DNA from: an uncultured virus (IMG/VR IMGVR_UViG_3300032116_021735)
Lineage: Duplodnaviria > Heunggongvirae > Uroviricota > Caudoviricetes
Reading direction: 5' to 3' (one strand)
IMG/VR virus record: IMGVR_UViG_3300032116_021735
Length of the DNA stretch: 20,000 nt
A program made the translations under genes and the position numbers. Positions 1-17,386 of this stretch are shown piece after piece. How positions within the stretch are numbered: the stretch's first letter is position 1; every line of letters starts with the position of its first letter. A model generated the notes under the pieces. That model made no database searches and was not told the origin of the DNA. It worked only from the letters and a program-made list of their open reading frames with translations.

Positions 1-1
1 T

Positions 2-1003
2 TCCTTAAATCCAAAAGAATATGAAGTAAAAATTCAATTAGAAAGTGTTCTTTCTTATGCATTTCAAGCTGAAATGAATTGTCCCAGTTCGGGAGTTCTA
101 TTTCTAGAACTTTTCTGTGGTAAGAAAAATAGAGTGGGCTTTCATTCAACAAAGTCTAAAAAAGAAGTCATTAGATTAATTGAAAGTTTTGGGTATGCTT
201 CTTTAGTAGAAAATTTGCTAAAAGACTCTTTGAATCTTGCCTCATCTAGCTCTAGAATCTTTTTAAAGAAATCTACTTCAACTTCTTCTTATCTAGAGCT
301 AGTAAAAGGTTACCACTTTTTATTAAATTCTCTTCTTAAGATTCAAACACAAGAGATTCCAAGATTGAAAGTGGCATGTATCGATGGATACATAGAAAAT
401 GTATCTGAAATACATCATCTTTTAAGTTTCCTGTCAGAGACTAAAATTCCTTGTCTTCTTCTAGTCAGAGGATTGTCAAATGACGTTCTCAATACACTAA
501 AAGTCAACAATGATAGAAAGACAATACAGGTATATCCCTACAAGACTGCTTTTGATCTTGATGAAGTTAACACTATTGTGGACGTAGCGACAGTTTCCGG
601 AGCAGATGTAATCTCTACTACAAAAGGAAATTTAATATCATCGCTAAATCCGGAGTTATTAGGAGAACTAAATACTTGTATTTTAACGGAAAAGTCTTTT
701 AGCGGAAATTCTAATTTTTCATCTTCAGTCAAAAGACACGTAGATGAGTTGATAAGAAAATCTAAAGAAAGACCAGAATTATCTGATATCCTCTCTAATA
801 GGATAAAATCATTATCTTCTGAGTGTATCAACATCTGCATACCAGATGATATGGATTTTTTTTATAGATCTAGTCAGATAGATGAAGGGATCAGAATCAT
901 TTCTTCAATCATGAATAACACATTCAATCCTGAAGAAAATGCAAAGAAATTTTATGATTCTTTTCAGAAAAACTTTGAATCTTCTGTAAGATTTTTACTT
1001 TAG
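2..1003 (+). CDS. Degenerate GroEL/Cpn60-like protein (apical and intermediate domains recognisable); 5'-partial
   Basis: The frame is open from base 2 ([25 protein letters not shown]...), so the true start probably lies upstream of the window. Segments are collinear with GroEL: [22 protein letters not shown] ~ [33 protein letters not shown]...[20 protein letters not shown] ~ ISNIREMLPVL...[32 protein letters not shown] ~ [21 protein letters not shown] ~ LQERVAKLA. No GDGTTT motif. Confidence 0.8.
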   Translation, partial: [333 protein letters not shown]

Positions 1004-1017
1004 CTCTCTCTTGTGTA

Positions 1018-1025
1018 TATAAATT
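1018..1025 (+). promoter_or_regulatory. Putative phage late-type promoter motif TATAAATT
   Basis: It lies just before ATG 1028. The same 8-mer is intergenic at 18702-18709. It resembles the T4 late promoter TATAAATA. Confidence 0.3.
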
Positions 1026-1027
1026 TT

Positions 1028-1246
1028 ATGAACATCGTTGATAAGATTTCAAGAGACTCTAGAATACTGATAGACAGTGCAAAAGACACTTTTGTGTCAA
1101 ATTTTCTCACTATGATGAGAAACAAAGACTTAGAATTAAGCAATGATCAAGTTGAAAAACTGATTAGCTTAGTTACTTTGTCTCTGGATGAGTCCTTTCA
1201 AAAGACTCTTCCTTTCTATCAGACAATGATAAAGAAGTATTTGTAA
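1028..1246 (+). CDS. Small hypothetical protein (predicted helical)
   Basis: The ORF fills the gap between its neighbours and its stop overlaps the next start (TAATG). ATG 1028 is preferred over GTG 1013. Confidence 0.7.
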   Translation: MNIVDKISRDSRILIDSAKDTFVSNFLTMMRNKDLELSNDQVEKLISLVTLSLDESFQKTLPFYQTMIKKYL

Positions 1247-1719
1247 TGAAAGGCTACAGACACCTTGTTAAATGCAGGTGTGTTTTACCTCAATACAAAG
1301 GCTTATCAAGCCCACCTGCCCATCACTTCATTGTATTTTCTGTAGTTAATGATGACGATACGGTGAGAATAAAATATTCTCAGTGCAATAACTGCGGTAT
1401 TGTTCATAAAGTCATAGATGTATGTACTTCAGATATAATTCCCGGAAAAGAAGCAATGTCTTCTATTGTTAAAATAGAAGACATTAAACTTTCACTTCCA
1501 CATAATCTTTCAGACATACTTGAGAGAAATAATGTTGATTTAGCAACATGGGAGCAAGCTCAGTTCATATTGGAGAATAAACAGTGGGGAAATTTCGTTA
1601 TCCTTGCTCAAGAAGAAGAAGCAGGCACGAAACAAGGAAAATATGTTAGGATTATGAGCGAGACCTTCTTCAAGGTGGAATCATTCTCTCGAGAAGATGT
1701 CGCTGTACCATCGGAGTAA
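1246..1719 (+). CDS. Hypothetical protein with putative Zn-binding Cys/His motifs
   Basis: 157 aa with HLVKCRC and CNNCGIVH...C motifs; translationally coupled to the upstream gene. Confidence 0.75.
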   Translation: MKGYRHLVKCRCVLPQYKGLSSPPAHHFIVFSVVNDDDTVRIKYSQCNNCGIVHKVIDVCTSDIIPGKEAMSSIVKIEDIKLSLPHNLSDILERNNVDLATWEQAQFILENKQWGNFVILAQEEEAGTKQGKYVRIMSETFFKVESFSREDVAVPSE

Positions 1720-1721
1720 AA

Positions 1722-1970
1722 ATGTCAGAGATATACGGTCAGTTAGAATCTGAGAAGTTAGCTGCCGATAACAAGGTGGCACACGAGATTGTCCGAGAAA
1801 TCAACCATTTCGGAATCAATGATCGACAGCGCTGGTTGATCATCTATTACCTCGGCCTCGAACTGGAGAACGTGGACGAGTTGAAGGAGCTCACGGGATT
1901 CGTGAAGGAGTTCAAAGGCAAGGACCTCTTCATCTCCAAGATCTATGGTGCCACAGAAGGAGACGAGTGA
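1722..1970 (+). CDS. Hypothetical protein, coupled to clpP
   Basis: 82 aa; GGAG Shine-Dalgarno at 1713-1716; stop overlaps the clpP start (TGATG). Confidence 0.75.
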   Translation: MSEIYGQLESEKLAADNKVAHEIVREINHFGINDRQRWLIIYYLGLELENVDELKELTGFVKEFKGKDLFISKIYGATEGDE

Positions 1971-2563
1971 TGGGAAGATTAGTCAGCAACTCCGCGAGAG
2001 TTTCGAAAACAAATAGTGATGAATCATCTACCACAATGGGAATCGCGATGGGAGACTCTCAGCGACTCGTTGTCCTCCACGGCGAGGTGAACGAGGCATC
2101 CATCTCACTGGTGGTCGCCCAGTTACTCCACCTCGCCTCTCAGAACCACAAGCCCATCCACCTCGTGATCTCCACGTACGGCGGATCGGTGGACGAGATG
2201 TTCACCTTGTACGATACGATCAAATTTCTCCCATGTCCAGTCCACACCATCGCCCTCGGAAAGGTCATGAGTGCAGGTGTTCTACTCCTCGCCACAGGAG
2301 CCAAAGGCAAGAGGATGATCGGCCGGAACGCTCGAGTGATGATCCATCCAATCTCCGGCGGTGTCGGAGGAAATGTGTTCGAAGTGATCAACGAGTCTAA
2401 GGAGCACAAGCGCATGCAGGACCAGATGGTGGATGCGATTGTCCGCGAGACCAAGGGTTCCAAGGCGGAGATTGAGAAGATCATGAAGTCCGGACACGAC
2501 TTCTACCTCCTTCCAGAACAAGCCGTCAAGCTCGGAATCGTAGACAAGATCATTGGTGACTGA
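1970..2563 (+). CDS. clpP: ClpP-family serine protease subunit
   Basis: IHLVISTYGGSV, YDTIKF, GKVMSAG (catalytic Ser), ARVMIHP (His), HDFYLLPEQAVKLGIVDKI (Asp and C-terminal motif). AAGGAG at 1957-1962 favours ATG 1970 over GTG 1967. Confidence 0.95.
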   Translation: MGRLVSNSARVSKTNSDESSTTMGIAMGDSQRLVVLHGEVNEASISLVVAQLLHLASQNHKPIHLVISTYGGSVDEMFTLYDTIKFLPCPVHTIALGKVMSAGVLLLATGAKGKRMIGRNARVMIHPISGGVGGNVFEVINESKEHKRMQDQMVDAIVRETKGSKAEIEKIMKSGHDFYLLPEQAVKLGIVDKIIGD

Positions 2564-2567
2564 TACC

Positions 2568-2596
2568 GGTGCAAAGTGTACCCCACGCGGTATAAT
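2568..2596 (+). promoter_or_regulatory. Putative sigma70-type promoter (perfect -10 TATAAT, atypical -35) for the helicase
   Basis: TATAAT at 2591-2596 sits in an otherwise GC-rich intergenic gap. GTGCAA lies 16 bp upstream (2569-2574). The ATG is only 11 nt downstream and has no SD. Confidence 0.55.
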
Positions 2597-2607
2597 GTCA
2601 GGCCAAC

Positions 2608-4257
2608 ATGCCTAAACATGACTACGTGAGGTATTTTCCATTTGACAGGATCCGTCCTGAACAACGAAATGCGATTGAATTCGCCCTGGATGCATACGAA
2701 TCCGGCAAGAAGGCCGTTCTGCTAGAAATGGGAACGGGTACAGGTAAATCCGCCACAGGTATCTGTATCTCCCGTTATATGGAGGCCCATGCTCCTGTTG
2801 TGAAGGATGAGGAGGGAATGCCTCTAGCAGGCTCCTACATTATAACAACACAGAAGATTCTCCAGGAGCAATACATGAACGATTTCGGGCCACAATCCGG
2901 AAAGAACCTTATTCGTACGATTAAATCATCCTCAAACTATCGGTGCAAGCACTACTCAGATAACTCCTGCTCTGAGTCAAAGAGATTGCTACAGAAACTT
3001 GGCAAACAGGTGGCAGGTACAGATTTCGCCAAAACCTGCAAGAATGAATGCACGTACTCCCTGGAAAAACAAGATTTTATTGAATCACCAATCTCCATCA
3101 CGAATTTCTCCTATTTTCTGGCGGAGACCACGTACGCAGGAAAGTTAACTCCTCGAGCCCTCCTCGTGGTGGATGAGTGCCACAACACGGAAACGGAGCT
3201 GGGCAAGTTCATTGAGGTGAGTTTCTCTGAGAAGTTCGCTCGAGATGTTCTCAAGTGTAAGATACCGAAGCTGGACACCCAGGAGGCCGTTCTCGAGTGG
3301 GTGAAGGGCCCGTACCGCAAGGCGGTGAACAAGTACGTTCGAGAGTTGGAGAAGAACCTCGTGAGGCTCTCAGATTCGGAAGGCCAAGGTGAGTTCTCGA
3401 AGCAGTACGAGATGCTCGAGAAGCATACCGGTAAGATCGATCAGTTCATCGAGGTATACAATCCAACCAATTGGGTGATGAACGTGGCCTACCCACAGGA
3501 GGGCAATCGCAGGGGAGCCCGTAAGTTCGAGTTCAAACCCGTCGATCTGGGACCATACTCGCAGAAGGTGTTCCTTCGATCAGGTGCTCGAACCCTGATG
3601 ATGAGTGCCACTGTTGTGGACCACGAAGTTTTCTGCAAATCTATCGGCCTAGATCCTGCCGATGTTGCCTACCTCCGCATCGGATCTCCCTTCCCCGTGG
3701 AGAACAGGCCTGCCCACTACATACCTGTGGGTTCGATGGGCAAGGACTCAATCGACAAGACCCTTCCAATCATGGCGGAGGCGGTCAAGATGATTCTCGA
3801 CAAGCATCCTGATGTGAAGGGAATCATCCATACGAGCAATTATAAAGTTGCAAAATACCTTATGGAGAATGTGAAGACCAACCGGTTCCTCACCCATGAG
3901 TCCGCCAACCGCGATGAGGTTCTTAAGTTCCACGTGACTTCCTCAGAGCCTACAGTACTCCTATCTCCTTCGATGATGGAAGGTGTTGACCTCGCTGATG
4001 ATGCCTCGCGGTTTCAGATACTGTGCAAGGTACCCTTCCCGTACCTCGGTGACCTCGTGATCAAGAAGCGAATGGAGAAGGACAAAATGTGGTACCCTTA
4101 CACCACCGCGAAGTCTGTCATCCAGGCATTCGGTCGATCTATTCGAAACGAGAAAGACCACGCAGTTTCCTACATTCTGGACTCAGACTGGGACAGGTTC
4201 TACTCCCGGAACATCCACATGTTCCCCCAGGAATTTAGGTCATCCTTCATCAAGTAG
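2608..4257 (+). CDS. DinG/XPD(Rad3)-family SF2 DNA helicase with putative 4Fe-4S cluster
   Basis: Q motif (RPEQ), motif I MGTGTGKS, motif II DECH, motif III MSAT, motif V EGVD, motif VI QAFGRSIR. Four Cys lie between motifs I and II (NYRC..SC..TCKNECTY). Confidence 0.92.
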   Translation: MPKHDYVRYFPFDRIRPEQRNAIEFALDAYESGKKAVLLEMGTGTGKSATGICISRYMEAHAPVVKDEEGMPLAGSYIITTQKILQEQYMNDFGPQSGKNLIRTIKSSSNYRCKHYSDNSCSESKRLLQKLGKQVAGTDFAKTCKNECTYSLEKQDFIESPISITNFSYFLAETTYAGKLTPRALLVVDECHNTETELGKFIEVSFSEKFARDVLKCKIPKLDTQEAVLEWVKGPYRKAVNKYVRELEKNLVRLSDSEGQGEFSKQYEMLEKHTGKIDQFIEVYNPTNWVMNVAYPQEGNRRGARKFEFKPVDLGPYSQKVFLRSGARTLMMSATVVDHEVFCKSIGLDPADVAYLRIGSPFPVENRPAHYIPVGSMGKDSIDKTLPIMAEAVKMILDKHPDVKGIIHTSNYKVAKYLMENVKTNRFLTHESANRDEVLKFHVTSSEPTVLLSPSMMEGVDLADDASRFQILCKVPFPYLGDLVIKKRMEKDKMWYPYTTAKSVIQAFGRSIRNEKDHAVSYILDSDWDRFYSRNIHMFPQEFRSSFIK

Positions 4258-4300
4258 TTTACTTTTTTGAAGTTGGTCCATATATTCCTGAATCAGGAGG
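4258..4300 (+). promoter_or_regulatory. Putative sigma70-type promoter plus SD for the Hc1-like gene, overlapped by a 13-bp palindrome
   Basis: TTTACT (4258-4263), 17-bp spacer, TATATT (4281-4286); palindrome TCCTGA-A-TCAGGA (4286-4298); AGGAGG (4295-4300). Confidence 0.6.
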
Positions 4301-4312
4301 TCACATTAACAA

Positions 4313-4516
4313 ATGAGTGATAACCCAATCGTATCGAAGTGGAATGAGTTGAAGGCCCTAGTTGAAGCTCTCGAGGCCGATGTTGCCAAGAATGCAAAGG
4401 GCGTTGCTGCTGCCGGCGTGCGGGCTCGCAAGGGTCTTCGCCAGTTACAGTCAAAGTCAAAAGAGATTGTTAAGCTCATGATTGAGACTGACAAAGCTGG
4501 AAAACAAGAGAAGTAG
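4313..4516 (+). CDS. Histone H1-like nucleoid protein, Hc1 family (short form)
   Basis: LKALVEALEADVAKNAKGVAAAGVRARKGLRQLQSKSKEI matches the Hc1/HctA N-terminal pattern (D..K..KGNKAA..R.R). AGGAGG lies upstream. Confidence 0.85.
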   Translation: MSDNPIVSKWNELKALVEALEADVAKNAKGVAAAGVRARKGLRQLQSKSKEIVKLMIETDKAGKQEK

Positions 4517-4517
4517 C

Positions 4518-4757
4518 ATGAGACAAATTGATTTGATCAAAAGAATTTTAGCAAATAAAGCTCAGGAAGTTATTGCTGAAAATAATTCAGAGATCAATGA
4601 GTCTAATGAAGTGCCTCCCGTAGAAGATAAAAATAATGTTTCTCTTGAGCAAGAGAAACATTCTCAAACTGAAAGTAATTCTACAGTTAAGGAAACTTCA
4701 AAAAAGAAAAATACTTTCCCTTCAAAAAAGAAAAAAACGCCTGAATCAGGCGTTTAG
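4518..4757 (+). CDS. Hypothetical low-complexity protein (acidic middle, Lys-rich tail)
   Basis: ATG 4518 is 1 nt after the Hc1 stop. The product is E/N/S-rich with a basic C-terminus. Its stop overlaps the stop of the convergent gene (TTAG at 4754-4757). Confidence 0.6.
   Translation: MRQIDLIKRILANKAQEVIAENNSEINESNEVPPVEDKNNVSLEQEKHSQTESNSTVKETSKKKNTFPSKKKKTPESGV
4724..4755 (-). terminator. Intrinsic terminator downstream of the sigma-region-4 gene (possibly bidirectional)
   Basis: The minus strand reads CGCCTG-ATT-CAGGCG-TTTTTTTCTTTTTT right after the TAA stop. Perfect inverted repeat AAACGCCTGA-A-TCAGGCGTTT at 4735-4755. Confidence 0.65.
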
Positions 4758-5020
4758 CTTTGAATAAAGCTTCTAATTTTTTGATAAATATTTTTTTCTA
4801 TTTGACAAATTCTCATTCTCGTCAGGCCGTAGATCTTCCCAATCTCGTTTAGGGTTAAAGGTCCGGCCTGACTCGTTATTAAAATACAATTTTTACCTTT
4901 TGGGAAATCTATCCACTGTTTACAAGATTTTCTCTCACATTTGCAAGAGCTTTTTTCTACAGCATCATAGCATTTTTCTTTCACTACATTTAACTTTATT
5001 TTTTCTTGATTGTTGCTCAT
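4754..5020 (-). CDS. Stand-alone sigma70 region-4 HTH protein with Cys-rich N-terminus
   Basis: PLTLNEIGKIYGLTRMRICQIEKNIYQKIR ~ sigma70 region 4.2 ([28 protein letters not shown]). Five Cys precede the HTH. At 88 aa it has no sigma region 2. Confidence 0.85.
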   Translation of the reverse strand: MSNNQEKIKLNVVKEKCYDAVEKSSCKCERKSCKQWIDFPKGKNCILITSQAGPLTLNEIGKIYGLTRMRICQIEKNIYQKIRSFIQS

Positions 5021-5080
5021 AGATCTGTGTAAGATAATTTAGCAAGGAATGATTTTTGTATAAGTCATCTTCTAATACAC

Positions 5081-6484
5081 ATGAAAAAAACTTACATACT
5101 CGACACAAACGTCCTCCTCAGCGATCCAAACTGCTTCAATAACTTTCAAGACAATGATGTGATCCTTCCGATCCTTGTCTTGGAAGAACTTGACAAACAT
5201 AAAGGCAGGTCAGATGAGGTAGGACGAACCGCTCGAGAGGTCAACAGGATCCTCGATAAGATTAGTGAATCAGGTTCTCTAAAAGAAGGTGTCTCTCTAC
5301 CTTCCGGAGGAATTCTTAGAGTGATGTCCTCACCGACTGGATACAACGCACTTCTCCCGCCCGAGCTTGTTGTTGGATCTTCGGTAGACAATATGATCAT
5401 TGGATTCGTCCTGATGCTTCAGCGGGAAGTTCCTGAAGCAATCCTCGTTTCCAAGGACATCAACGTCCGTGTTAAGTGCTCTTCTCTAGGCATCGAGGCT
5501 CAGGACTATCTGTCTAACAGAGCCACTGATTCTGCAGAGCATCTCTACACAGGCGTGAAAGTATTCGTGGTTCCTTACGATGTCGTAGAGATGTTCTACG
5601 CAAGAGACTCTATCCACATGGACAACGTAACCACGGAGAAACTGTATCCCAATCAGATACTCGTCATCAAGTCAGTTGATTCCGAAGGTAACACTCTCAA
5701 GTCTGCGATCTGTAGGGTCAAGGGAGACATGCTCCACCACCTCAGAAAAATCGATCAAGTCTTTGGTGTGAAACCACGTAACAAAGAACAGACATTTTCT
5801 ATCGAACTCCTGATGGATCCCAGTGTCAAACTGGTGACACTCACCGGCAAGGCGGGCTGTGGAAAGACTCTCATCGCCATTGCGGCAGGATTGGAGCAAC
5901 TCGAGGCAATGGGAAACGATGGACCATACCAGAAGCTTATCGTTTCTCGACCAGTTCAACCAGTAGGACGAGACATCGGCTTCCTGCCCGGCACTCTTGC
6001 TGAGAAGATGGAACCATGGATTGCTCCCATCAGGGACAACCTCGAGTACCTCCTCAGCAGCAAGTCTGGTAAGAAGGGAAACAGCCGTAGCAAGAAGCGG
6101 ATGGATGAACTCGCAGGCGGCAGTGGAACATCAGGTCTCAGCAAGGATCCTTTCCTCGAGTTAATGCAATCGAAGGGCCTCATCGAGGTGGAGGCGATCA
6201 CCTTCATCCGCGGCCGCTCAATCCCCAACGCATTCATCATCATCGACGAGGCGCAGAACCTCTCGATGCACGAGTTAAAAACCATCGTGACTCGTGCTGG
6301 CGAAGGCACAAAGATTGTTCTCACTGGTGATGTTGAACAGATCGACAACAATCACGTGGACACCTTCACCAACGGTCTCACACACGCTGTTGAGAAGTTT
6401 AAGGACCAAGAAATCTCAGGTCACGTAACTCTTCTCAAGGGAGAACGCAGTGAGCTTGCAACTCTTGCTTCTAAGATTCTTTAA
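5081..6484 (+). CDS. phoH: PIN-PhoH (PhoH2/YlaK-like) protein
   Basis: PIN domain: YILDTNVLL, VLEELD, VDNMI, SKDINVR. PhoH ATPase: GKAGCGKT, SRP, IGFLPG, EKMEPW, IRGRS, DEAQN, TRAGEGTKIVLTGD..Q, ERSELA. Confidence 0.95.
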   Translation: MKKTYILDTNVLLSDPNCFNNFQDNDVILPILVLEELDKHKGRSDEVGRTAREVNRILDKISESGSLKEGVSLPSGGILRVMSSPTGYNALLPPELVVGSSVDNMIIGFVLMLQREVPEAILVSKDINVRVKCSSLGIEAQDYLSNRATDSAEHLYTGVKVFVVPYDVVEMFYARDSIHMDNVTTEKLYPNQILVIKSVDSEGNTLKSAICRVKGDMLHHLRKIDQVFGVKPRNKEQTFSIELLMDPSVKLVTLTGKAGCGKTLIAIAAGLEQLEAMGNDGPYQKLIVSRPVQPVGRDIGFLPGTLAEKMEPWIAPIRDNLEYLLSSKSGKKGNSRSKKRMDELAGGSGTSGLSKDPFLELMQSKGLIEVEAITFIRGRSIPNAFIIIDEAQNLSMHELKTIVTRAGEGTKIVLTGDVEQIDNNHVDTFTNGLTHAVEKFKDQEISGHVTLLKGERSELATLASKIL

Positions 6485-6535: not shown

Positions 6536-7975
6536 ATGAGCGGAATATTAGATAATAGATCTAGAATAATAGATGCCATTCTAACCTCAGAGGGAAGAAG
6601 GCAAATGGCGCAGGGTACTTTTGAAGTTTCTTATGCAACTTTTACTGACTCAGGCGTCTCCTATATACCAGACTTAGTTAACGGACACCAAGACCCAACT
6701 GATAAAATTTATTTTGAAGCCTGTAATCTTCCGCAAGATCAAATAACATTTGAATCAAACGATGAAGGAAAACTTGTTCCCTTCAGATCTCAGGATATTA
6801 AAGTAGAAACTCCTGAAGGAAATATACCCAACGCTATGGCTGAAGGAAGCATAGTCAATGGTAGACTAACTGCATATCAATACCATCATGGAAGGAGAAT
6901 AAAGGCTTCTTTAATTACAGAGAATATAAACGATGACAACAAAGGATTCATTTATTCTGATTCTCTAGGTGTCACAGGAAGCATACTGGTTAAACCTAGA
7001 CTCTTAGGAGGCACATACACAGTAACTGCACCTTCTCCTGGAGGACCTTATATTGGATATGTGGGAACAAGGGGAGGTTCTGGTCCCAAAGAATTTTGCA
7101 TTGCAATATCTGGAGCCATTAGTTCTTTAAAGAACATTGGTGGTCCTGATGTTTCTTGCAGGGCCATTAATGACTCAGTTTATTTGGATTTCTTAGAATC
7201 TTTTTCAGGAACTAAGTTATTTGCAACGGGTACTCTTTCCTCTCCGCTACAACTAGAAGAAGGAGCAATTGGTGGAAAAATTCTTACCGACGAAATTGAA
7301 AATGCATCTTTTTCAAGTCAGATAAGGGGAATTTTAACTTCTTCTCTTGACAATTTTATTGATTTGCAGACAATTTCAAGCGTTGACAGACTTTTTGAAG
7401 ATGATAAATTTTTCTTGTCTGAAAATGAATTAACATTCGATCTCTCAAAATCATCTTCAAAATCTCTCAAATCTTTTAGGGAAGCACCTCCGTCTCTCAA
7501 TTCAATTGATTCACTCTTTAATGATAAAAAATTGAGTCATCTAGAAAATTTCATGTATCTTCCTCCCATAGTAAAAACTTCAGATTCAACCGTGTCTGAC
7601 AAGACAAGAATAGAGAATTTAACGCCCTATCTTTTAGGGAATTATCCTTCTTGGGGAGATAACGAAGTGAGAATGTCTTATTCAGACATAATGGAAGAAA
7701 TTAAATCATTTGACAATGATGAAAAGCCTGTTTACTTTAACTTTACTTCTAGAAAGAATAGGGTCATTGGTCAAATTTTTGAAATTACAAACAATACAGT
7801 GAACAAGCTTGATATTGTTGATTTTGGAGATTTGTCTAATAATTCTCAAGACTTAAACAGAATATTTTTTATAGGCAAGACATTTTTGGACAACAGAGGA
7901 ACTACCTGCTTTGTCAATATGTTTACTCTTGTTTTTTCAAGAGATGATAGAAGCTCTCTAGAGGTAGTCAAATGA
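6536..7975 (+). CDS. Putative virion structural protein (baseplate/tail), paralogous N-terminus to 16637-17386
   Basis: ILDNRSRIIDAILTSEGRRQMA...F.VSYATFTDSGVSY...FEA parallels YLDHSTNNIILDAVLTDYGRQRLA...F.VTHYSLGDDEVDY...FEA. The ORF is clear; the function is inferred. Confidence 0.6.
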   Translation: MSGILDNRSRIIDAILTSEGRRQMAQGTFEVSYATFTDSGVSYIPDLVNGHQDPTDKIYFEACNLPQDQITFESNDEGKLVPFRSQDIKVETPEGNIPNAMAEGSIVNGRLTAYQYHHGRRIKASLITENINDDNKGFIYSDSLGVTGSILVKPRLLGGTYTVTAPSPGGPYIGYVGTRGGSGPKEFCIAISGAISSLKNIGGPDVSCRAINDSVYLDFLESFSGTKLFATGTLSSPLQLEEGAIGGKILTDEIENASFSSQIRGILTSSLDNFIDLQTISSVDRLFEDDKFFLSENELTFDLSKSSSKSLKSFREAPPSLNSIDSLFNDKKLSHLENFMYLPPIVKTSDSTVSDKTRIENLTPYLLGNYPSWGDNEVRMSYSDIMEEIKSFDNDEKPVYFNFTSRKNRVIGQIFEITNNTVNKLDIVDFGDLSNNSQDLNRIFFIGKTFLDNRGTTCFVNMFTLVFSRDDRSSLEVVK

Positions 7976-10656
7976 AAATTTATCAAAAACCTGTAATTTC
8001 TGATAGGTCTTCTTCCGTACTAAAGATTAATAAGGACACTTTCGCAGAATTAATTTCTGAGAGCACTGATTTTTTTAACTTTAACTTTACTTTTAGTATT
8101 TCTTTAAAAAATTCAAGAAAAGATCCTAGACAGTATGACAAAGTTGTAATAACTGTAAAAAGAAAAGAAGATAATTACTCTGATTTGTTTTCTAATATTG
8201 CAAGCGAAACAGCAAACAGGGTTATCAATTATCCACTTTCGACCACTCCTCAGAAAAAGTTTTCAAATTCTCCTACAAAAATTCTGCCTGATAAAGTTTC
8301 TAACAAGCTTTATTCAGGATTGAATTTAGTAAAAGACATTGATAAAAAAGAGCAGTTTATAGGACAATCATCAATATTAATCAATTCATTAATAGTTGAA
8401 GCTGCTTCAAACAAGTATACTCTCACGGAACTATATGCCGAAGACTTTAAGAAGAGTAGAAAAGAAGCCAGAGACAGAGATACTCAGCTTAGAAATCAAA
8501 TCATTTTAGATGAAAAATCTAGCATTGTTAGCGATATAGACACGAATAGAATAGATCCATCTTCCGTTCTAACTCGAATTAATTCAGAGTTGTGCGATAT
8601 AACATACCCGCTATCTGAAGAATCTATTTCAAGTCTTAGCTCGGAGTCCTTGTTTGAAAATCCTAAGTTAAGAATGAGTCATATATCCAGTGGAAATCCT
8701 CCGCTATTTTTTGATATAGTCAAGTACTACTTGAGCGACATCCAACCAGCACCTGCTGAAGATACTTCTACATTGTATGAAAAGAGAATTTCTACTAAGA
8801 ATCTTGATGATATCTCTATTAGTCATTCTATTCCCATTAAAAAAAATAACAAGAACGTCAACTTAGAAGTTAGATTCGATCTATACAAGATAGGATCTAA
8901 TATTATTGACGAAACATTCTCTACAGATTTATTTCTTCCCAGTCATGTAGAGGCTTTTAATTGCATTTCTAATCCTCCGGAAGTTAAATTTTCTTATGCT
9001 AAATTTTTTCAAAAAAATGAAGAATCTTCTCTTTGCAATGTAACAGTCATCGATAGAGAAATTTCTAAAAAAATAGATGGGTATAATGTCTATCTAAAGT
9101 CTATAGACGCTCAAGGTAATGTTTCTCCCTATGAAAAGATATCTCAATTAAAAAATGAAAAAATAAATGAATTTCAAGTCTTAACCAAGTCCAAGCTATC
9201 AATTCTTAGAGTGATACCGCTAGATTCACAGAACAAAGAGTCAAATACATTTACCAATATTGTTATAGGGCCTGGCTATAAAAGCATAGGAGCTTTAACA
9301 ATATTGCCAAGTCATTTTGGAAAGAATGGAATTAAAATAGATGTTTTAAATGTTCCTTCTAATTGTATTTCTTTGTCTCTGTATAGAAGAGATTGCACAG
9401 ATAACACGGAAGGTAATTTTGAACCAATTGAGACAATTAAGATTGTTAACAGTAGTAATATTTCGACAATAACAGATAGGTTTACTAATATTGGAAGAGT
9501 ATATGAGTATTATGCAATAGCAATTTGTATTGAAGATAATTCAAAAGAAGAAATATCGGTATATTCAAATTTTTCTGTTTTTAAGAGCTCTTCTGGTCCT
9601 TCAACAGACGCATCAATAAATGTAAATTTGCTAAATTCAAAATTTTCTACGTCTGATCTTTCTCCAAGCGTATCATTCGATCTTCTCACTTCAATATCAA
9701 AATCTGAAAATGAAAAAATAACTCAAACTCTTAAAGATCAGCTAGGAGAACTTTACAATCAGTTTCTAAATCCCGCAACAAATTCCTCTTCGCCTCTTGG
9801 GGAGGACAGTTCAGGAATACCGCAATATTCAAATATTTTCTTTCATGAAGTAGTAAGAACTAACTTGAATACCTCAGAGAGAGAAACTTTCGATTTAGTT
9901 TCAGATGGTACATTTATAGATAATCAAGAAACTCAAAAGATAAACAACGTAAAATCCATAAATCCCAACCATTCTTACGTCTACCAGATCTTTACTTATA
10001 AAAAGAATCCTGTAGAAATTTTTAAGAAATTTGTGGTAAGAGGTATTGACAACAGAGGGAAAGAATGGTTTTATCTTCCGTACAAGTGGAAACAACCAGT
10101 CGTAAAGCTTGGAAAACTTTACCCTGATGATAATCATGGAATTCCTGTTGTTGATGCATATGAAAACTTTACTTCTGAGTCTTTTGGACTTACTGCTCAA
10201 TATCAAATCGAATCTTCTTCTCAGTATTATTCAATAGATCAAATAGACCTGGATAGAATCGACGTAAATACTGTAAGAATAAGCTGGTCTTCAAATAACA
10301 ATATACAGGAAGTTTTAGACTCTTTTGTTGTTATGAAAGTAGTGAACGGAATAAGAAGTTTTGTTGGAAGAACTTGCAAGAATTACATTTACCATCAATT
10401 GACTGATTTAGATTTGGGAAGCATTTATTACATCGTTGTGCCTATAATGTCAGAATTTGACATCGACACACCTGCTTATTCTGAAACAATTTATGTCTCT
10501 CCCGAAGGTTTAACGCCAAGAGTCAAGGTGACTTCTCTTTCTTCCAAACTAATTGATGATTCATCCATAAAGATGAATGAAAACATTTTTAATGTTGAAA
10601 AGAACAGCTCCCTCTTGTCTTCTTTAAAGCAGAAATCATCTTTTAAAAAAATCTGA
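7972..10656 (+). CDS. Large putative structural protein with FN3/Ig-like beta-sandwich repeats
   Basis: Recurrent FN3-like strand patterns: GYNVYLK; LYRRD...ITDRFTNIGRVYEYYAIA; FID...HSYVYQIF; VRISW...IYYIVVPI. ATGA overlap with the upstream gene. Confidence 0.6.
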   Translation: MKIYQKPVISDRSSSVLKINKDTFAELISESTDFFNFNFTFSISLKNSRKDPRQYDKVVITVKRKEDNYSDLFSNIASETANRVINYPLSTTPQKKFSNSPTKILPDKVSNKLYSGLNLVKDIDKKEQFIGQSSILINSLIVEAASNKYTLTELYAEDFKKSRKEARDRDTQLRNQIILDEKSSIVSDIDTNRIDPSSVLTRINSELCDITYPLSEESISSLSSESLFENPKLRMSHISSGNPPLFFDIVKYYLSDIQPAPAEDTSTLYEKRISTKNLDDISISHSIPIKKNNKNVNLEVRFDLYKIGSNIIDETFSTDLFLPSHVEAFNCISNPPEVKFSYAKFFQKNEESSLCNVTVIDREISKKIDGYNVYLKSIDAQGNVSPYEKISQLKNEKINEFQVLTKSKLSILRVIPLDSQNKESNTFTNIVIGPGYKSIGALTILPSHFGKNGIKIDVLNVPSNCISLSLYRRDCTDNTEGNFEPIETIKIVNSSNISTITDRFTNIGRVYEYYAIAICIEDNSKEEISVYSNFSVFKSSSGPSTDASINVNLLNSKFSTSDLSPSVSFDLLTSISKSENEKITQTLKDQLGELYNQFLNPATNSSSPLGEDSSGIPQYSNIFFHEVVRTNLNTSERETFDLVSDGTFIDNQETQKINNVKSINPNHSYVYQIFTYKKNPVEIFKKFVVRGIDNRGKEWFYLPYKWKQPVVKLGKLYPDDNHGIPVVDAYENFTSESFGLTAQYQIESSSQYYSIDQIDLDRIDVNTVRISWSSNNNIQEVLDSFVVMKVVNGIRSFVGRTCKNYIYHQLTDLDLGSIYYIVVPIMSEFDIDTPAYSETIYVSPEGLTPRVKVTSLSSKLIDDSSIKMNENIFNVEKNSSLLSSLKQKSSFKKI

Positions 10657-10670
10657 ATGGATAAAGCAAA

Positions 10671-13600
10671 ATGATAAAAACTTCAAAGATCTTTAGTGGA
10701 ACTGCTTCTTCTATTCCCAAAGTTACACTACATTCAACCCCAGTTGGAATTTCTGCAGCAGTTTCAAATTTCTCTGTACCAGTAGTTCCTATACAAGGAA
10801 TTCAATCATCTCTTTTATCAAGTAAGTCTTCATTTGGAATTTCTGGTGAAGTTAGTAATTTTAACGTTTCAAATGAATTCATTCAGGATGCAGTATCTCA
10901 AAAAATACCTACTGTATCTATAAAAACTCCTATAATTCAAAAACCAATTACGTCTCCAAATCTTTTTCAAGATTCATCTGATCTTGAAGTCTCAGAGACT
11001 AACCTGGAACAGAAAATTTTTTCTCAATACACGGGAATAAATGAAAGTGAGCCTTCTGTTATCTTAATGTCAGAATTTTCTCCCATATTTTCCGGAGGAT
11101 CAAAGAGCGAACAAGGAAAGGCTCTTGGCATAAAAGAGAATTCCAAAATCATAAATGCAAAAGTTGCAATAACTGTTCTTTCTCAAAGTAATGATACTAG
11201 ATCATTTATAAAATCAAATAAACAAGAACTAAGCAGCTATATTTTGGAAGAAGACTCGTTTCTTAATCAGCTGTCTAGAGTAACTTCTAAATCTTTAGAG
11301 TCTTTAGATGTAAGCTCATATGCAGTTCCTGTTTTTACCAAGTCAAATTTTGTGGGAAGCCTGTATGAGACGTTAAAAAAATCTGGCTATAGCGCAGACA
11401 ATATAGTTAAATTTTCTGAAACTAAGCTGTGGAATCAGTCATTGATTGAGCTAAAGAGATCACTCTTAACTCACACACAAGAATTAACTTCAATAAAATT
11501 TAATAGAAGGAATATAAGCTCAGATAGCGATCCTTTTGTTCTTTCTGACGTTGAAAAAGAGCCTGAGGGTCTTAAGAGGATATGGATAAATCCTTATTTG
11601 ACTTTGCCTACCTCTAGCGAAATTACCAATATTTCTAAACTAGAAGATAATATTAGAAATTTTTCTGATTTTGACAACAAGCAGTTTGTAAATCTATCAA
11701 TTTCTAATTCTTCTAGCTACTCAGGTATTACAAATAATATAAGTGGATTCATTTCTTCTTTTTCTTATACAGGAAGAGATATCAGCATAGTAGCTAACAC
11801 AGTTTTAAAAGAATCAACTTACGCTTCCTATCTGTTGAAACCAGAAAATTACTCTAGCATTGAGTATAAATTCAATTATAGATTGTCTCCATCAGGAGAC
11901 AACTTTCCTGTGTGGGATTATATCGTCGGCAGATTTCCAAGATCAGTCTTACAATTTTCTCAAAATCCTACGGGAAATAAGAATTCTTTGTCTTCATTTT
12001 CACAAGAATATGTTGCGCAGGGAGAAAGCACTTTTAACATACTTACGTTTGAAAATAATGTAATAGAAGGCACCAGTGTAACTCCCGGGTCAAGCTATTA
12101 CATTGATAGTTCTTTAATGACTCTTGACGGTAGATCATTTGATACTTCGAGGCTTGATCAACTTATCAGAAAGACAAAAGAAGCACACGATACAACAAAA
12201 ACAATTGTTGATATTCTCGGCTATAACATAGAAAAGATCTCTAATCCCGCCGGATTTAACGAGAAGTATGTAAAGAAAAATCAAGAATTTAATCTTGATC
12301 AACTCATTGATAAGCTTTCTATAGTTGCTTCAACCTATAAAAAATGCACTAAGATTTCTTCCCAGAAAGAAATTGATTCTTTAGATTCTACTTACATGAG
12401 TTCTGGATTCGGTCTCACGTTAAATGAATCAGTTGGTATTAGACTTGCATCCCTTATTTGTAAGGCAGCTGTATATCCAACCAAAAACTTTGAAAAGACT
12501 TCAAATAGACTAAAGTCTCTCCTTTTTCTTTGGACAGTTAATGTTGCCTTAAAACAAATAGACACTTCTATAAACAATGATAGTCTGATAAGTTTACTAA
12601 AAACAAAAATTTCTGAGCATCTTGCCTCTATAGCTGTTTCTTCAAACGCATCAGAAATATCACAAGCAAATAAAGAGGCGAGAACTTTTCCACTTGCTGC
12701 TGGCAGTTCTCCAGGTATAAGAACATATGAAGCTGAAATTAACGACACACCCGCAGTAAGAGAGAAAAAAGCTGCCCTAATAACTTACGTACAGTCAGTT
12801 AACTACAGAGTTTTTCAAATAGATCCTGGAAAAGGAATCTGGTTCGAGATCATTGGATTGCTAAAGAAAGTTTTAACGACCAGCCTCTATACAGGAGATT
12901 TTACTTCCTACTCGGGAATATCAAAGTTTGCTTATGTATTTTCTTTCTTTGACCTTGTCTTAAGGATAGTATCTTCTCAAACACCAGAAAATCTTTTAGG
13001 AACTTATTCAACTTCTTATGAGTACAATTCATCTTTTGGATCAATAACAATTTCTGAAACTGGATTTTTAATTGACAAAGTTACCAAGAGCAATCTCAAT
13101 GAGTGTTTTGACGCAAATTACATAGGTCCAAGCTATAAGTCAACAAAATTCTCCCGGAAGATATCTGACGCTGTAGGCTTCGTAAATTCAGAAAATACAG
13201 CTGTTATTAACCACGTTGCTATTTTTAGAAAATATCTCTTAGACCTTGGTATTTCTCTTGGTCTTTTTAGTTCTTTTTTAAAGAATAACTTTGAATCTCA
13301 TATTGCAACTCTAAAAAGCCTCTATGACTTAGACACAAATCTAAATGAAAGTCAAAAGACTTCTTTAATGAACTTAACGTTCTCAGAAGAGCAAATAAGG
13401 CTGACCAGATACTTGATGTCAGAAATAAAGGACAGAATAAAAGGCACAAGTAATCTTGAAGGTCAGTTAAGATCTTTACCAACTTTCTCAGACTTTCCAA
13501 GAGGATTTTCTGATTTTTTACCTCTCAACGAGACCGATATGGTTTCTTACACTATGCTTTCTCCTTACTTTAAATCGATTGAATTTTTAAAAGAAAAGGG

Positions 13601-14621
13601 AAACAACAAGAAGATCATTTCAATTGGAATTCCTCCTCGTCTCAATAGAAAAATAAGAACCATAGCAAGAACTTCAACAATTTCTGAGAAATCTATCAAA
13701 GAAGGATTGATTAGAATTAAGATCTATAAGATCGACAGACTTCATCCGGATATAGTCTATCTTCCAAAGACTTATCTTTTTGAGATGAATAGATTCCCTA
13801 CGAGAATTATTTCTAACTGGAATTATGATTCCTTCGTAGATGATGATTTTAATCTACTCAACATTCCAAGCAAACTAATAGATCCTGAAGGAAATATTAG
13901 TTTGAAAAAGAATTACATCGAAGCATTTCCGGCCTCAGTTTATGGAGACATTTTAAAAGAAGAAGAAAAATTCGAGATATACTCAAACCATTCTACCAGC
14001 TTTCTTTTAGAAGAATATCTTAGATGGTTTACAGACATACACTTTGACGAAAGTAGATACGTTAATTTTTCAGGGATAGACAAATCTGTTGACATAAAAG
14101 GAAGCCAGTACAAGACTTACCTGGGATTTGCAAAGAATAATCTTTCAACACAGGATTTTTCTCAAAAAGTTGCAGGTAGATTCACAGATCCCACAAGCGG
14201 AGAAACGTTCACTGTACCAATAAGCTCTCCTGAAAAATCCAATTCTTCTACTTCTACGTCAGCAAATACAAAATCTTACGTTATTCCAATGGACAGTACG
14301 ATTCTTTCGTATTTTTCAAATGAGACACTTGTTATAGATCCTTCTGAAGTAAAAAGAAGAATTTCGTGTTTGAAAAAATTTGACAGAGTCTTTACAGTAG
14401 TATTCGACCCAGATGATTTTTACGTAGATACTTCTGTTTCATCCAAGACTACGCTAGAATCGCTAAAAAATTTAGGGATACTTGTCGGAGGAGACATGGG
14501 AACTTCAAAGGATGAATCTCCGTACAAGAATAGGGATACAGTTCCTGGAGATGTTACACTTGACGAATATTTTGTAACGCTAGAACCTTACGATTACGTC
14601 CAAGAATATGAGGAAAAATGA
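10671..14621 (+). CDS. Large hypothetical protein (1316 aa), probably virion-associated
   Basis: Long Ser-rich ORF with no recognisable catalytic motif, embedded among structural-type genes. Confidence 0.55.
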   Translation: MIKTSKIFSGTASSIPKVTLHSTPVGISAAVSNFSVPVVPIQGIQSSLLSSKSSFGISGEVSNFNVSNEFIQDAVSQKIPTVSIKTPIIQKPITSPNLFQDSSDLEVSETNLEQKIFSQYTGINESEPSVILMSEFSPIFSGGSKSEQGKALGIKENSKIINAKVAITVLSQSNDTRSFIKSNKQELSSYILEEDSFLNQLSRVTSKSLESLDVSSYAVPVFTKSNFVGSLYETLKKSGYSADNIVKFSETKLWNQSLIELKRSLLTHTQELTSIKFNRRNISSDSDPFVLSDVEKEPEGLKRIWINPYLTLPTSSEITNISKLEDNIRNFSDFDNKQFVNLSISNSSSYSGITNNISGFISSFSYTGRDISIVANTVLKESTYASYLLKPENYSSIEYKFNYRLSPSGDNFPVWDYIVGRFPRSVLQFSQNPTGNKNSLSSFSQEYVAQGESTFNILTFENNVIEGTSVTPGSSYYIDSSLMTLDGRSFDTSRLDQLIRKTKEAHDTTKTIVDILGYNIEKISNPAGFNEKYVKKNQEFNLDQLIDKLSIVASTYKKCTKISSQKEIDSLDSTYMSSGFGLTLNESVGIRLASLICKAAVYPTKNFEKTSNRLKSLLFLWTVNVALKQIDTSINNDSLISLLKTKISEHLASIAVSSNASEISQANKEARTFPLAAGSSPGIRTYEAEINDTPAVREKKAALITYVQSVNYRVFQIDPGKGIWFEIIGLLKKVLTTSLYTGDFTSYSGISKFAYVFSFFDLVLRIVSSQTPENLLGTYSTSYEYNSSFGSITISETGFLIDKVTKSNLNECFDANYIGPSYKSTKFSRKISDAVGFVNSENTAVINHVAIFRKYLLDLGISLGLFSSFLKNNFESHIATLKSLYDLDTNLNESQKTSLMNLTFSEEQIRLTRYLMSEIKDRIKGTSNLEGQLRSLPTFSDFPRGFSDFLPLNETDMVSYTMLSPYFKSIEFLKEKGNNKKIISIGIPPRLNRKIRTIARTSTISEKSIKEGLIRIKIYKIDRLHPDIVYLPKTYLFEMNRFPTRIISNWNYDSFVDDDFNLLNIPSKLIDPEGNISLKKNYIEAFPASVYGDILKEEEKFEIYSNHSTSFLLEEYLRWFTDIHFDESRYVNFSGIDKSVDIKGSQYKTYLGFAKNNLSTQDFSQKVAGRFTDPTSGETFTVPISSPEKSNSSTSTSANTKSYVIPMDSTILSYFSNETLVIDPSEVKRRISCLKKFDRVFTVVFDPDDFYVDTSVSSKTTLESLKNLGILVGGDMGTSKDESPYKNRDTVPGDVTLDEYFVTLEPYDYVQEYEEK

Positions 14622-16555: not shown

Positions 16556-16636
16556 TGATTGCTAGAAACAACTAATTCAAGCTAAAAAAAAGAACTTTGA
16601 ATAATTACAGCATTAGAAGACCAAACCTGAGGGCGT

Positions 16637-17386
16637 ATGGGATATCTTGATCATAGCACAAACAACATAATACTGGACGCAGTTTTAACTGATTACGGTC
16701 GTCAAAGACTTGCGACAGCGAATAGTTCTTTTAATGTAACTCATTACTCCCTTGGAGACGATGAAGTAGATTACAGAATTATAAAGAAGTATGGAAGAAC
16801 TGTCGGTAAAGAGAAGATAGAGAAAAACACGCCCATATTCGAGGCATTAACAAATTCTTCAATTGCTCTCAAGTACAGACTAATTGGAAGAGAGAATGAT
16901 GGAACCTCCATTTCTACAATTTATCTCCCAGTTTTAAAAACAAATTCCACGGTCGCGCTAGAGAAAACACAAAATTCTTCAGTTTCAGTAAAAGTTGACC
17001 TCTATTTTAACAACTCCACTGGTGCTTCTGTTCCTGCAGAATTGATACAGACTATCTATAAGATAAAAGTCTCGGATAGATTCTTTACCATAGATACACC
17101 CGTTGGAGGAAATCTAACACAACCAGACACAGCCAGGAATTTGGCAAATGCAGGTGATCCCAACAGGATTGCGACGTACACATTTACGACATCTTCAAGT
17201 ACGCAAACTTCTATTTCTTTTAATGTAAAAGCAAGAAATATTGACAACACTACGCTTTCTGTTTATGGAAAAAGAATTGCCACAAATTCTTCAGTTAGAC
17301 AAATAACGAGTTATATTACCGTTGTAGGCGAAAGGCACGGATGTACGCTGGACATTCCTGTCACTTACAGAGCATCTTTAATCTGA
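16637..17386 (+). CDS. Putative virion structural protein with tail-collar/baseplate-like N-terminus
   Basis: AVLTDYGRQRLA...VTHYSLGD resembles the start of phage tail-collar fibre domains (ILT..G...LA...IT....GD). GAGGG lies upstream. Confidence 0.65.
   Translation: MGYLDHSTNNIILDAVLTDYGRQRLATANSSFNVTHYSLGDDEVDYRIIKKYGRTVGKEKIEKNTPIFEALTNSSIALKYRLIGRENDGTSISTIYLPVLKTNSTVALEKTQNSSVSVKVDLYFNNSTGASVPAELIQTIYKIKVSDRFFTIDTPVGGNLTQPDTARNLANAGDPNRIATYTFTTSSSTQTSISFNVKARNIDNTTLSVYGKRIATNSSVRQITSYITVVGERHGCTLDIPVTYRASLI

Follow-up and report, generated by a model that had tools for sequence, protein, structure and literature searches.

Chaperonins are defined by a ring driven by adenosine triphosphate (ATP), and isolated apical domains that bind client proteins are known only as laboratory constructs. 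These engineered GroEL minichaperones consist of the apical domain (residues 191-345/376; structures 1kid, 1fya and 3vz6), and the fragment GroEL-AD (residues 191-376) is reported to bind non-native proteins hydrophobically (PMC4973282). Here, a stretch of 20,000 nucleotides from an uncultured virus of the class Caudoviricetes (IMG/VR record IMGVR_UViG_3300032116_021735), referred to as the window, was analysed with respect to the gene at positions 2..1003 (plus strand), for which a previous reading of the sequence alone had proposed a natural minichaperone that keeps the apical domain of GroEL and apparently lacks its equatorial ATPase machinery. The gene encodes a true GroEL homologue, far beyond chance, and belongs to the core genes of uncultured freshwater jumbo phages that form a large clade. 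With about even confidence, its product is regarded as a working 'mini-GroEL', which would bind a specific partner independently of ATP via the groove formed by helices H and I of the apical domain. It would act as a chaperone or adaptor dedicated to this partner and perhaps feed the GroEL of the phage.

Full-length chaperonins are annotated in 245 deposited phage records, often those of jumbo phages. They include the proteins of Pseudomonas phage EL (gp146) and Bacillus phage AR9 and are ATP-dependent ring formers (510-580 amino acids in the nine that were fetched for comparison), several of which are reported to function without a co-chaperonin (PMC7185714, PMC9598537). The protein described here is likewise a phage-encoded GroEL homologue but no full-length ATPase subunit. 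Its homology to GroEL has already been noticed by annotation pipelines, as some JGI (Joint Genome Institute) records label relatives 'chaperonin GroEL'; what appears to be new, judging from the sequences, is the shortened, ATPase-less GroEL family. No description of such a family was found in the full-text literature, with subscription journals and supplements outside the scope of the search, and the words 'truncated', 'equatorial' and 'apical' do not occur in the article about viral chaperonins by Marine et al. (2017; PMC5649160).

The gene, its full-length product and its maintenance

The open reading frame (ORF) at 2..1003 is truncated by the left edge of the window. A longer record, G001 (59,833 bases), contains the window as its minus strand (100% of sampled words); since these 59,833 bases correspond to a CheckV completeness of 18%, a jumbo-phage genome is implied. 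In G001, where the full N-terminus could be recovered, the frame continues for 41 further codons up to a GTG, with an in-frame TAA two codons upstream of it. The whole product (P0001) comprises 374 amino acids, compared with 548 in E. coli GroEL. Codons 42-374 and the stop codon are located at window positions 2..1003 and codons 1-41 to the left of the window (L001:2822-2700, minus strand of G001), as delimited by the ORF and its extension, the start, the upstream stop and the homology to GroEL. The GTG start is not preceded by an obvious ribosome-binding site. The long start is nevertheless considered the real one, because residues preceding the first ATG (Q38, H39, E65) are conserved among relatives.

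A word-indexed search returned relatives in 110 clusters at 90% identity, nearly all of them 365-435 amino acids long. From 80 relatives (22-94% identity among the aligned sequences), a family alignment and profile, A1, was built. At E<=1e-3, an exhaustive profile search yielded 4,850 representatives, of which 2,193 remained at <=1e-10 and 769 at <=1e-30, with the weaker tiers necessarily taking in ordinary GroELs, as A1 scores the full-length GroELs that reside in related genomes at 71-93 bits; the best 150 representatives measured 281-429 amino acids. The gene was intact in 80 viral loci, with no internal stops and with ORFs of 369-436 amino acids in 77 of them. Of the remaining three, one (194 amino acids) is ended by the contig end, and two (464 and 503 amino acids) probably have over-extended starts. 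Longer or fused forms gave no match among proteins of 656-2000 amino acids, which is weak evidence, and a relative of 606 amino acids (P0070) showed no match in a Pfam scan.

The ratio of nonsynonymous to synonymous substitutions (dN/dS), proposed earlier as a check across homologues, was determined by the Nei-Gojobori method. Of 33 pairs computed, 17 with dS<1.2 were used, the others being saturated or having a dS >1.2. Values of 0.07-0.26 were obtained, indicating purifying selection and therefore no decaying pseudogene. The suspicion that the gene is decaying or a gene-calling artefact could be raised by its shortness relative to GroEL, the loss of catalytic motifs and the GTG start without an obvious ribosome-binding site, but it is contradicted by the conserved length in 80 loci devoid of internal stops, the low dN/dS, the hundreds of clusters, the confidently predicted fold and the conservation of Q38, H39 and E65, which precede the first ATG. 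This explanation is regarded as next to impossible, and the gene is selectively maintained.

Homology to GroEL

The homology was supported at several levels. PHROG 5725 ('chaperonin groEL') was matched at E 1.3e-12, and among PDB entries the single sequence identified Thermus GroEL (E 6.8e-6). The A1 profile recovered solved GroELs in the PDB at E 2e-25, with profile positions 80-354 corresponding to GroEL 122-409. Using hhalign, residues 105-358 were aligned to residues 153-426 of E. coli GroEL alone with a probability of 98.4%, and comparison with an alignment of ten GroEL sequences gave a probability of 99.9% (E 2.6e-32). An AlphaFold2 model based on A1 reached a predicted local distance difference test score (pLDDT) of 89.6 and a predicted template modelling score (pTM) of 0.73, and a Foldseek search with this model ranked GroEL/Hsp60 chains at the top (E about 4e-20).

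Structural superposition was performed with VIA-align. The whole model aligned to mtHsp60 with a Z of 23.9 over 367 residues, model positions 1-371 spanning chain positions 8-518. The apical domain alone matched 5cdj_B with a Z of 23.7 and a root-mean-square deviation (rmsd) of 1.9 Å over 171 residues, and 10yy with a Z of 23.0 and an rmsd of 2.1 Å (model 144-314 against GroEL 192-374); the engineered minichaperones 1kid, 1fya and 3vz6 were superimposed with a Z of 22.4-22.5 and an rmsd of 2.4-2.5. Profile, hhalign and structural comparisons thus agree with the earlier claim that the apical and intermediate segments align with GroEL. The model is closer to the raised, ATP-/GroES-bound form of the subunit (rmsd 5.3-5.7; 5opx_A, 8g7l_A, 4v4o_C) than to the apo form (rmsd 7.2-7.9; 1ss8, 1oel, 2yey), as also reflected in the Foldseek TMq values (0.61-0.63 for raised-form chains versus 0.50-0.53 for apo chains).

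Against this evidence stand the Pfam results. The 333-amino-acid part of the protein encoded in the window gave no match at E<=1, two longer family members gave none at E<=0.01, and the precomputed Pfam entry was '-' for all 110 relatives; the Pfam gathering threshold of Cpn60_TCP1 (PF00118) was not reached. The nearest clusters in the ESM Atlas are hypothetical viral proteins without names.

Domain anatomy and loss of the nucleotide site

Relative to GroEL, the protein has lost most of the equatorial domain: of about 270 residues, a stump of some 114 (about 87 + 27) is left. The N-terminal remnant comprises residues 1-87 (GroEL 1-133), of which residues 42-87 are encoded at window positions 2..139; its limits were taken from a global profile alignment, with low confidence in this region, and from model helices at residues 48-67 and 71-79. 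In the model, the order of elements is kept (helix, beta-hairpin, short helix, long helix, half-length helix), with the hairpin, formed by strands 23-27 and 30-34, located where GroEL has its stem loop. The intermediate domain is present and complete in two segments that flank the apical domain. Its N-terminal part (residues 88-143, GroEL about 134-191) was assigned to 140..307 by profile and hhalign alignments, and its C-terminal part (residues 315-347, GroEL 377-409) to 821..919 by alignment. Between them, the apical domain (residues 144-314, GroEL 192-374), delimited with VIA-align, occupies 308..820. The protein ends in a C-terminal stump (residues 348-374 and the stop codon, 920..1003), which consists, according to the model and the alignment, of a loop and one helix in place of GroEL 410-548. 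In the model, the two equatorial remnants fold against each other. In longer members of the family, the N-terminus is extended by at most 34 residues, and additional stretches of up to 20 and up to 23 residues follow residues 87 and 348, respectively.

The place of the GroEL phosphate loop (GDGTTT) is taken by E65 and P69-S-S-G72 within the sequence EMNCPSSG (residues 65-72, positions 71-94; E65 in 80/80 and P69 in 72/80 sequences), an equivalence taken from the global hhalign alignment, which is forced and of low confidence in this region. Under this alignment, none of the three aspartates with a catalytic or Mg-binding role in GroEL is conserved in the family: the D87 position holds Gly in 57, Ser in 6 and Asp in none of 80 sequences, that of D52 Arg in 35, Thr in 20 and Asp in none, and that of D398 Glu in 41, Tyr in 17 and Arg in 8. 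Opposite RVEDA, two hhalign alignments place QIDEG (residues 333-337, positions 875-889, within the C-terminal part of the intermediate domain), and D335 and R339 are kept in 78/80 and 80/80 sequences, respectively. The family has no GGG 414-416 loop, and nothing was aligned by hhalign past GroEL ~443. Independently of this alignment, the family consensus contains neither a GDGTT-like nor a GGG-like motif, and it likewise lacks a P-loop-like sequence and any further nucleotide motif of a known type.

In these respects, the sequence-only reading proved accurate. It had noted the replacement of AGDGTTT by EMNCPSSG, the shortened connection between this place and the intermediate domain (visible as gaps in the alignment with GroEL), the change from RVEDA to QIDEG, the missing GGG motif and the end of the protein about 40 residues later (37 residues after QIDEG). 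Its statement that the equatorial ATPase machinery is lacking applies to the residues of the nucleotide site, which were lost; a rudimentary equatorial domain remains and folds in the model, which displays neither a complete equatorial domain nor an intact pocket. Judged by alignment and model, the apical and intermediate domains are complete and the nucleotide-site residues of GroEL are gone. The protein falls outside GroEL proper for want of a complete equatorial domain (GroEL 1-133 + 409-523), of the nucleotide-site residues and of a score above the Pfam threshold.

The stump and the intermediate domain might still form a new, smaller ligand site (for a nucleotide, a metal or another ligand) that drives a hinge motion of the apical domain. 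Such residual cycling would account for the conservation of E65, P69, G70, Q38, D335 and R339, whose positions coincide with or are close to those lining the nucleotide site of GroEL or pointing towards it from helix M, for the hinge glycine at the G192 position (74/80) and for the fairly conserved intermediate domain (mean column identity 0.37 in the C-terminal part). It is hard to reconcile with the loss of all three aspartates, the absence of the C-terminal segment that binds base and ribose and a consensus without a known nucleotide motif or Pfam domain, and is considered improbable.

Conservation of the apical groove

Conservation was calculated as the mean pairwise column identity in A1. 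It was highest in the apical domain (0.44), followed by the C-terminal (0.37) and N-terminal (0.24) parts of the intermediate domain and the equatorial stumps (0.22 and, at the C-terminus, 0.18). Within the apical domain, it peaked in helix H (residues 175-188, 401..442; 0.58) and helix I (residues 201-212, 479..514; 0.66), both of which were assigned from the model and the alignments. The clade of co-resident full-length GroELs is, in contrast, evenly conserved, with values of 0.63-0.85 in all domains.

Client and GroES binding in GroEL involves the groove residues L234, L237, L259, V263, V264, Y199, Y203 and F204. In helix H of the window protein, H179 and L182 correspond to L234 and L237; in helix I, L204, K208, V209 and N210 correspond to L259, V263, V264 and N265. 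The T261 and N265 positions (family T206 and N210) are invariant (80/80), and R268 is kept in 77/80 sequences. Hydrophobic groove positions retained in the family are those of L237 (Leu in 74/80), L259 (Leu in 44/80) and V264 (Val in 74/80). Two others have become polar, with L234 replaced by His in 77/80 and V263 by Lys in 74/80 sequences, and in the window protein, a gap of three residues includes the Y199 position. Selection is thus focused on the H/I binding surface of the apical domain. As the groove is strongly conserved and partly polar (His, Lys), a dedicated ligand or partner would explain it better than promiscuous binding of unfolded chains, and the pattern suggests one dedicated client or partner rather than a general holdase.

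Co-resident full-length GroEL

A scan for PF00118 detected one full-length chaperonin gene in each of G002-G005, the four records with a completeness of 84% or more, encoding proteins of 538-552 amino acids (221-242 bits) at a distance of 87-180 kb from the short gene; among ten records with a completeness of 38-61%, full-length GroEL was found in one (G008). These proteins retain TLGPKG, TKDG, GDGTTT, IEDA, GGG and the C-terminal DP motif and form a clade with 64-80% identity across 40 clusters, compared with 22-94% in the short family. Among the 80 matches listed in a viral scan with the profile of this clade (A3), identity reached 57% at best and, apart from two matches, did not exceed 51%; most of them belonged to other GroEL lineages. 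Cpn10/GroES (PF00166) was absent from G001 and from five large relatives. The search for a canonical groEL and groES, which had also been proposed earlier, was therefore positive for full-length GroEL in all four relatives of at least 84% completeness; it yielded no GroES, and no full-length GroEL in G001 itself.

Directly upstream of the full-length GroEL gene, at the usual place of groES, a conserved ORF of 93-110 codons was observed in five of five relatives (L096:3152-3436, minus strand; L097:3125-3406, minus; L098:1036-1368, plus; L099:3341-3631, minus; L100:3136-3459, minus). The products match each other (phmmer, E 1e-18 to 1e-31) and no Pfam or PHROG family, with an hhalign probability of 0.1% for GroES; they could represent a novel co-factor.

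A maximum-likelihood tree (45 rows, 398 columns) was calculated by quick search, with support from the Shimodaira-Hasegawa-like approximate likelihood ratio test (SH-aLRT) only. The full-length GroELs of the jumbo phages nest among ordinary group I GroELs. The short family is placed on a long separate branch (SH-aLRT 100), joined by a branch of about 2 changes per column, and is therefore no recent duplicate of the co-resident GroEL; in view of long branches and compositional bias, no origin is claimed.

The short protein might modulate chaperonin rings by co-assembling with, capping or blocking those of the phage or the host (as a poison subunit), or replace the missing GroES lid as a surrogate derived from GroEL. 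Complete relatives hold a canonical GroEL without Cpn10, the model resembles the raised rather than the apo conformation, and it retains a hairpin at the place of the stem loop, which is an intra-ring contact element in GroEL. However, much of the ring contact in GroEL is provided by the C-terminal equatorial half, which is missing here, the equatorial remainder is the least conserved part of the protein (0.18-0.22), unexpectedly for a conserved ring interface, and the short family is no recent duplicate of the co-resident GroEL. Overall, this explanation is thought to be rather unlikely. A prediction of the complex between the full-length GroEL of G004 and its short paralogue (alignments A3 and A4) returned a score of 0.00 and a mark of 0.32, which is evidence neither way. 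It is somewhat less likely still that the short protein is the second part of a two-part viral chaperonin system, as a motor-less accessory replacing GroES or a client-selecting adaptor for the phage GroEL. If so, a chaperonin co-factor would have evolved from the chaperonin itself by loss of the ATPase domain.

Gene neighbourhood

Neighbours were counted in the 80 viral loci by tblastn (E<=1e-5). The gene order, common to all 80, consists, on the upstream side, of a divergent gene of 258 codons, a coiled-coil protein gene of 172 codons and then the GroEL-like gene, and downstream of an optional insert of 0.9-2.5 kb followed by genes for a 77-residue protein, a 157-residue zinc-ribbon protein, an 82-residue protein, ClpP, a helicase, PhoH and a 479-residue protein. 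In the window, the small conserved helical protein of 77 amino acids is encoded at 1013..1246 (plus strand, as for all genes below) and has homologues in 48 of the 71 loci with a small ORF before the 157-codon gene; in relatives, it stays beside the latter gene, not beside the GroEL-like gene. It was considered as the missing equatorial half of a split gene and dismissed (hhalign probability 0.5% against GroEL and 0.1% against GroES; often 1-2.5 kb away in relatives). Likewise rejected was stop-codon read-through into this ORF, which is in frame in the window, but in only 8 of 23 abutting loci, the level expected by chance.

The zinc-ribbon gene (157 codons, 1246..1719) lies downstream of the GroEL-like gene in 80/80 loci. 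Its product is better conserved than the GroEL-like protein (33-85% identity), with C10, C12, C47, C50, H6 and H54 invariant, and was modelled with a pLDDT of 92.1, with no match to a solved fold (best Foldseek E 0.04, best VIA Z 4.1). It is followed by genes for a conserved protein of 82 amino acids (1722..1970; 71/80 loci), a ClpP-type serine protease subunit of 198 amino acids (1967..2563; PF00574, CLP_protease, E 2.9e-41; 63/80), a DNA helicase of 549 amino acids (2608..4257; phrog_2488, E 4e-110; 62/80) and a PhoH-like ATPase of 467 amino acids (5081..6484; phrog_2765, E 7e-106; 76/80). The ClpP-type gene is surrounded by the helicase, PhoH and small genes, not by portal or capsid genes, and its product may have a regulatory function and not be the prohead protease that PHROG names suggest.

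This arrangement bears on the possibility that the GroEL-like protein was exapted for a role outside folding, as a delivery or gating partner of the ClpP-type protease or as a regulator together with the zinc-ribbon protein. The gene order is fixed with respect to the zinc-ribbon gene (80/80) and ClpP (63/80), the match to CLP_protease is strong, ClpP and chaperonin lineages both build 7-fold rings, no capsid genes are found beside the GroEL-like gene in the window, and the polar His and Lys speak in favour of a specific groove ligand, either a folded protein or a peptide. Adjacency within a large conserved core block is, however, unspecific, ClpP was undetected in 17/80 loci, and variable inserts of 0.9-2.5 kb part the GroEL-like gene from the downstream genes in many relatives. 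On balance, such a role is judged quite improbable.

Further features of the locus were recorded. The upstream neighbour of 172 codons (L001:2855-3373, minus strand) has the appearance of a coiled coil with a hydrophobic C-terminal segment, is conserved in 57/80 loci and matches no family. The inserts at the junction between the GroEL-like gene and the 77-codon gene (L015-L078, e.g. L052:9198-11432) contain differing small ORFs, and this junction may be a hotspot for accessory genes. At window positions 7972-16555 (plus strand), consecutive ORFs of 894, 1316 and 645 codons have no PHROG match and no Pfam match at E<=0.01, as do ORFs of 479, 431 and 426 codons around them; the 479-codon ORF was found in 44/80 and the 894-codon ORF in 7/80 of the related loci, and the other large ORFs were not found there. 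The G+C content is about 0.51 in the ClpP and helicase genes and about 0.46 in the PhoH gene within the conserved block, compared with 0.31-0.35 in the GroEL-like gene as well as in the large ORFs further downstream (window 2001-4000 versus 1-1000 and 7001-17000); amino-acid constraint, expression level or foreign origin could explain this difference. Scans for promoters and terminators around the GroEL-like gene gave counts as in shuffled sequences, and no tRNAs were found in the window.

Distribution and environment

Contigs of the related viruses reach 369 kb, and two have terminal repeats. The nearest deposited relatives of the helicase (about 28-32% identity) belong to the jumbo phages Tunturi_5, G and XacN1 and to uncultured phages of 630-640 kb. 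A search of Tunturi_5, phage G, XacN1 and LR756502 with the A1 profile, which was positive in 5/5 controls, gave no match to the short gene. No match to the short protein was obtained by tblastn against 50,697 deposited phage records at E<=1e-3, and a pattern scan of 185,579 species genomes (prophages, hosts) revealed no relative.

DNA nearly identical to window positions 1-2600 (0.69-0.95 of sampled words) was present in freshwater metagenome runs of at least three further studies (P8, P10, P11). In four metatranscriptome libraries, short contigs covered parts of window positions 1-5500 at 99-100% identity, run X15 covering positions 1-352, which belong to the GroEL-like gene. Contigs of two RNA libraries span the 5' part of the GroEL-like gene without differences, which does not show transcription and is a weak hint that the gene is expressed.

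Functional interpretation

The most plausible mechanism starts from a group I chaperonin paralogue that has kept its whole client-binding apical domain and its hinge-forming intermediate domain and has shed the motor. A partner would be bound without ATP through the remodelled groove between helices H and I, which, being in part as hydrophobic as in GroEL and in part lined by a near-invariant His and Lys, points to a single, dedicated and conserved client or partner. Given that complete relatives carry an intact GroEL without a GroES, clients may be captured by the short protein on behalf of the full-length GroEL of the phage or be passed on to it.

Several points weigh against this reading. 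The alignment of the first ~90 residues was a forced global profile alignment of low confidence, with equivalences drawn also from the order of secondary-structure elements. At or near the former nucleotide site, E65 and R339 are invariant and P69, G70, Q38 and D335 (near-)invariant, such that some ligand or an interdomain switch could persist there, and the hinge glycines, needless for a static binder, are largely retained (G192 in 74/80, G410 in 40/80). Full-length GroEL was detected in 5 of 15 records counting G001, with the other 10 being only 18-61% complete, and its universal co-occurrence with the short gene would be extrapolated from four nearly complete genomes; in G001 (18% complete), the PF00118 scan found nothing, neither the short gene nor a full-length GroEL.

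By analogy, the short protein, itself related to GroEL, would work most like an engineered GroEL minichaperone, from which ATP-independent binding by the apical domain is likewise expected. It differs from these constructs in that it is natural, keeps the intermediate domain and an equatorial stump, has a partly polar groove and belongs to a block of phage core genes. The interpretation given by the sequence-only reading is supported with regard to the complete apical and intermediate domains, the lost nucleotide-site residues and the purifying selection; it needs correction in that the equatorial stump persists and the groove is not the generic hydrophobic one of GroEL. Among the roles it had put forward (an ATP-independent holdase, a dedicated assembly factor or a subunit joining GroEL rings), a general holdase would fit this groove less well than a protein with a dedicated partner. 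With GroEL/Cpn60 (PF00118), the protein shares homology over GroEL 122-426, the apical and intermediate folds, the residues T261, N265 and R268 and the hydrophobic character at L237, L259 and V264. It differs in length and equatorial content, in the absence of GDGTTT, the GGG loop and conserved D52, D87 and D398, in the changes of L234 to His and V263 to Lys, and in a conservation that peaks in the apical domain rather than being evenly spread, in a family below Pfam detection. The co-resident full-length GroELs (G002-G005, G008) are homologous and share genomes with it, but have intact ATP motifs, nest among group I GroELs and are encoded far from the short gene, whose family forms a separate long branch.

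The family would thus be a natural counterpart of the laboratory minichaperones: large, ancient and selected, with the motor shed and selection refocused on a remodelled groove. It would allow the capabilities of isolated apical and intermediate domains to be examined in a natural system, and as the proteins are small and confidently folded in prediction, these questions are directly testable. The family may also reveal how jumbo phages organise folding and quality control beside their own GroEL and ClpP.

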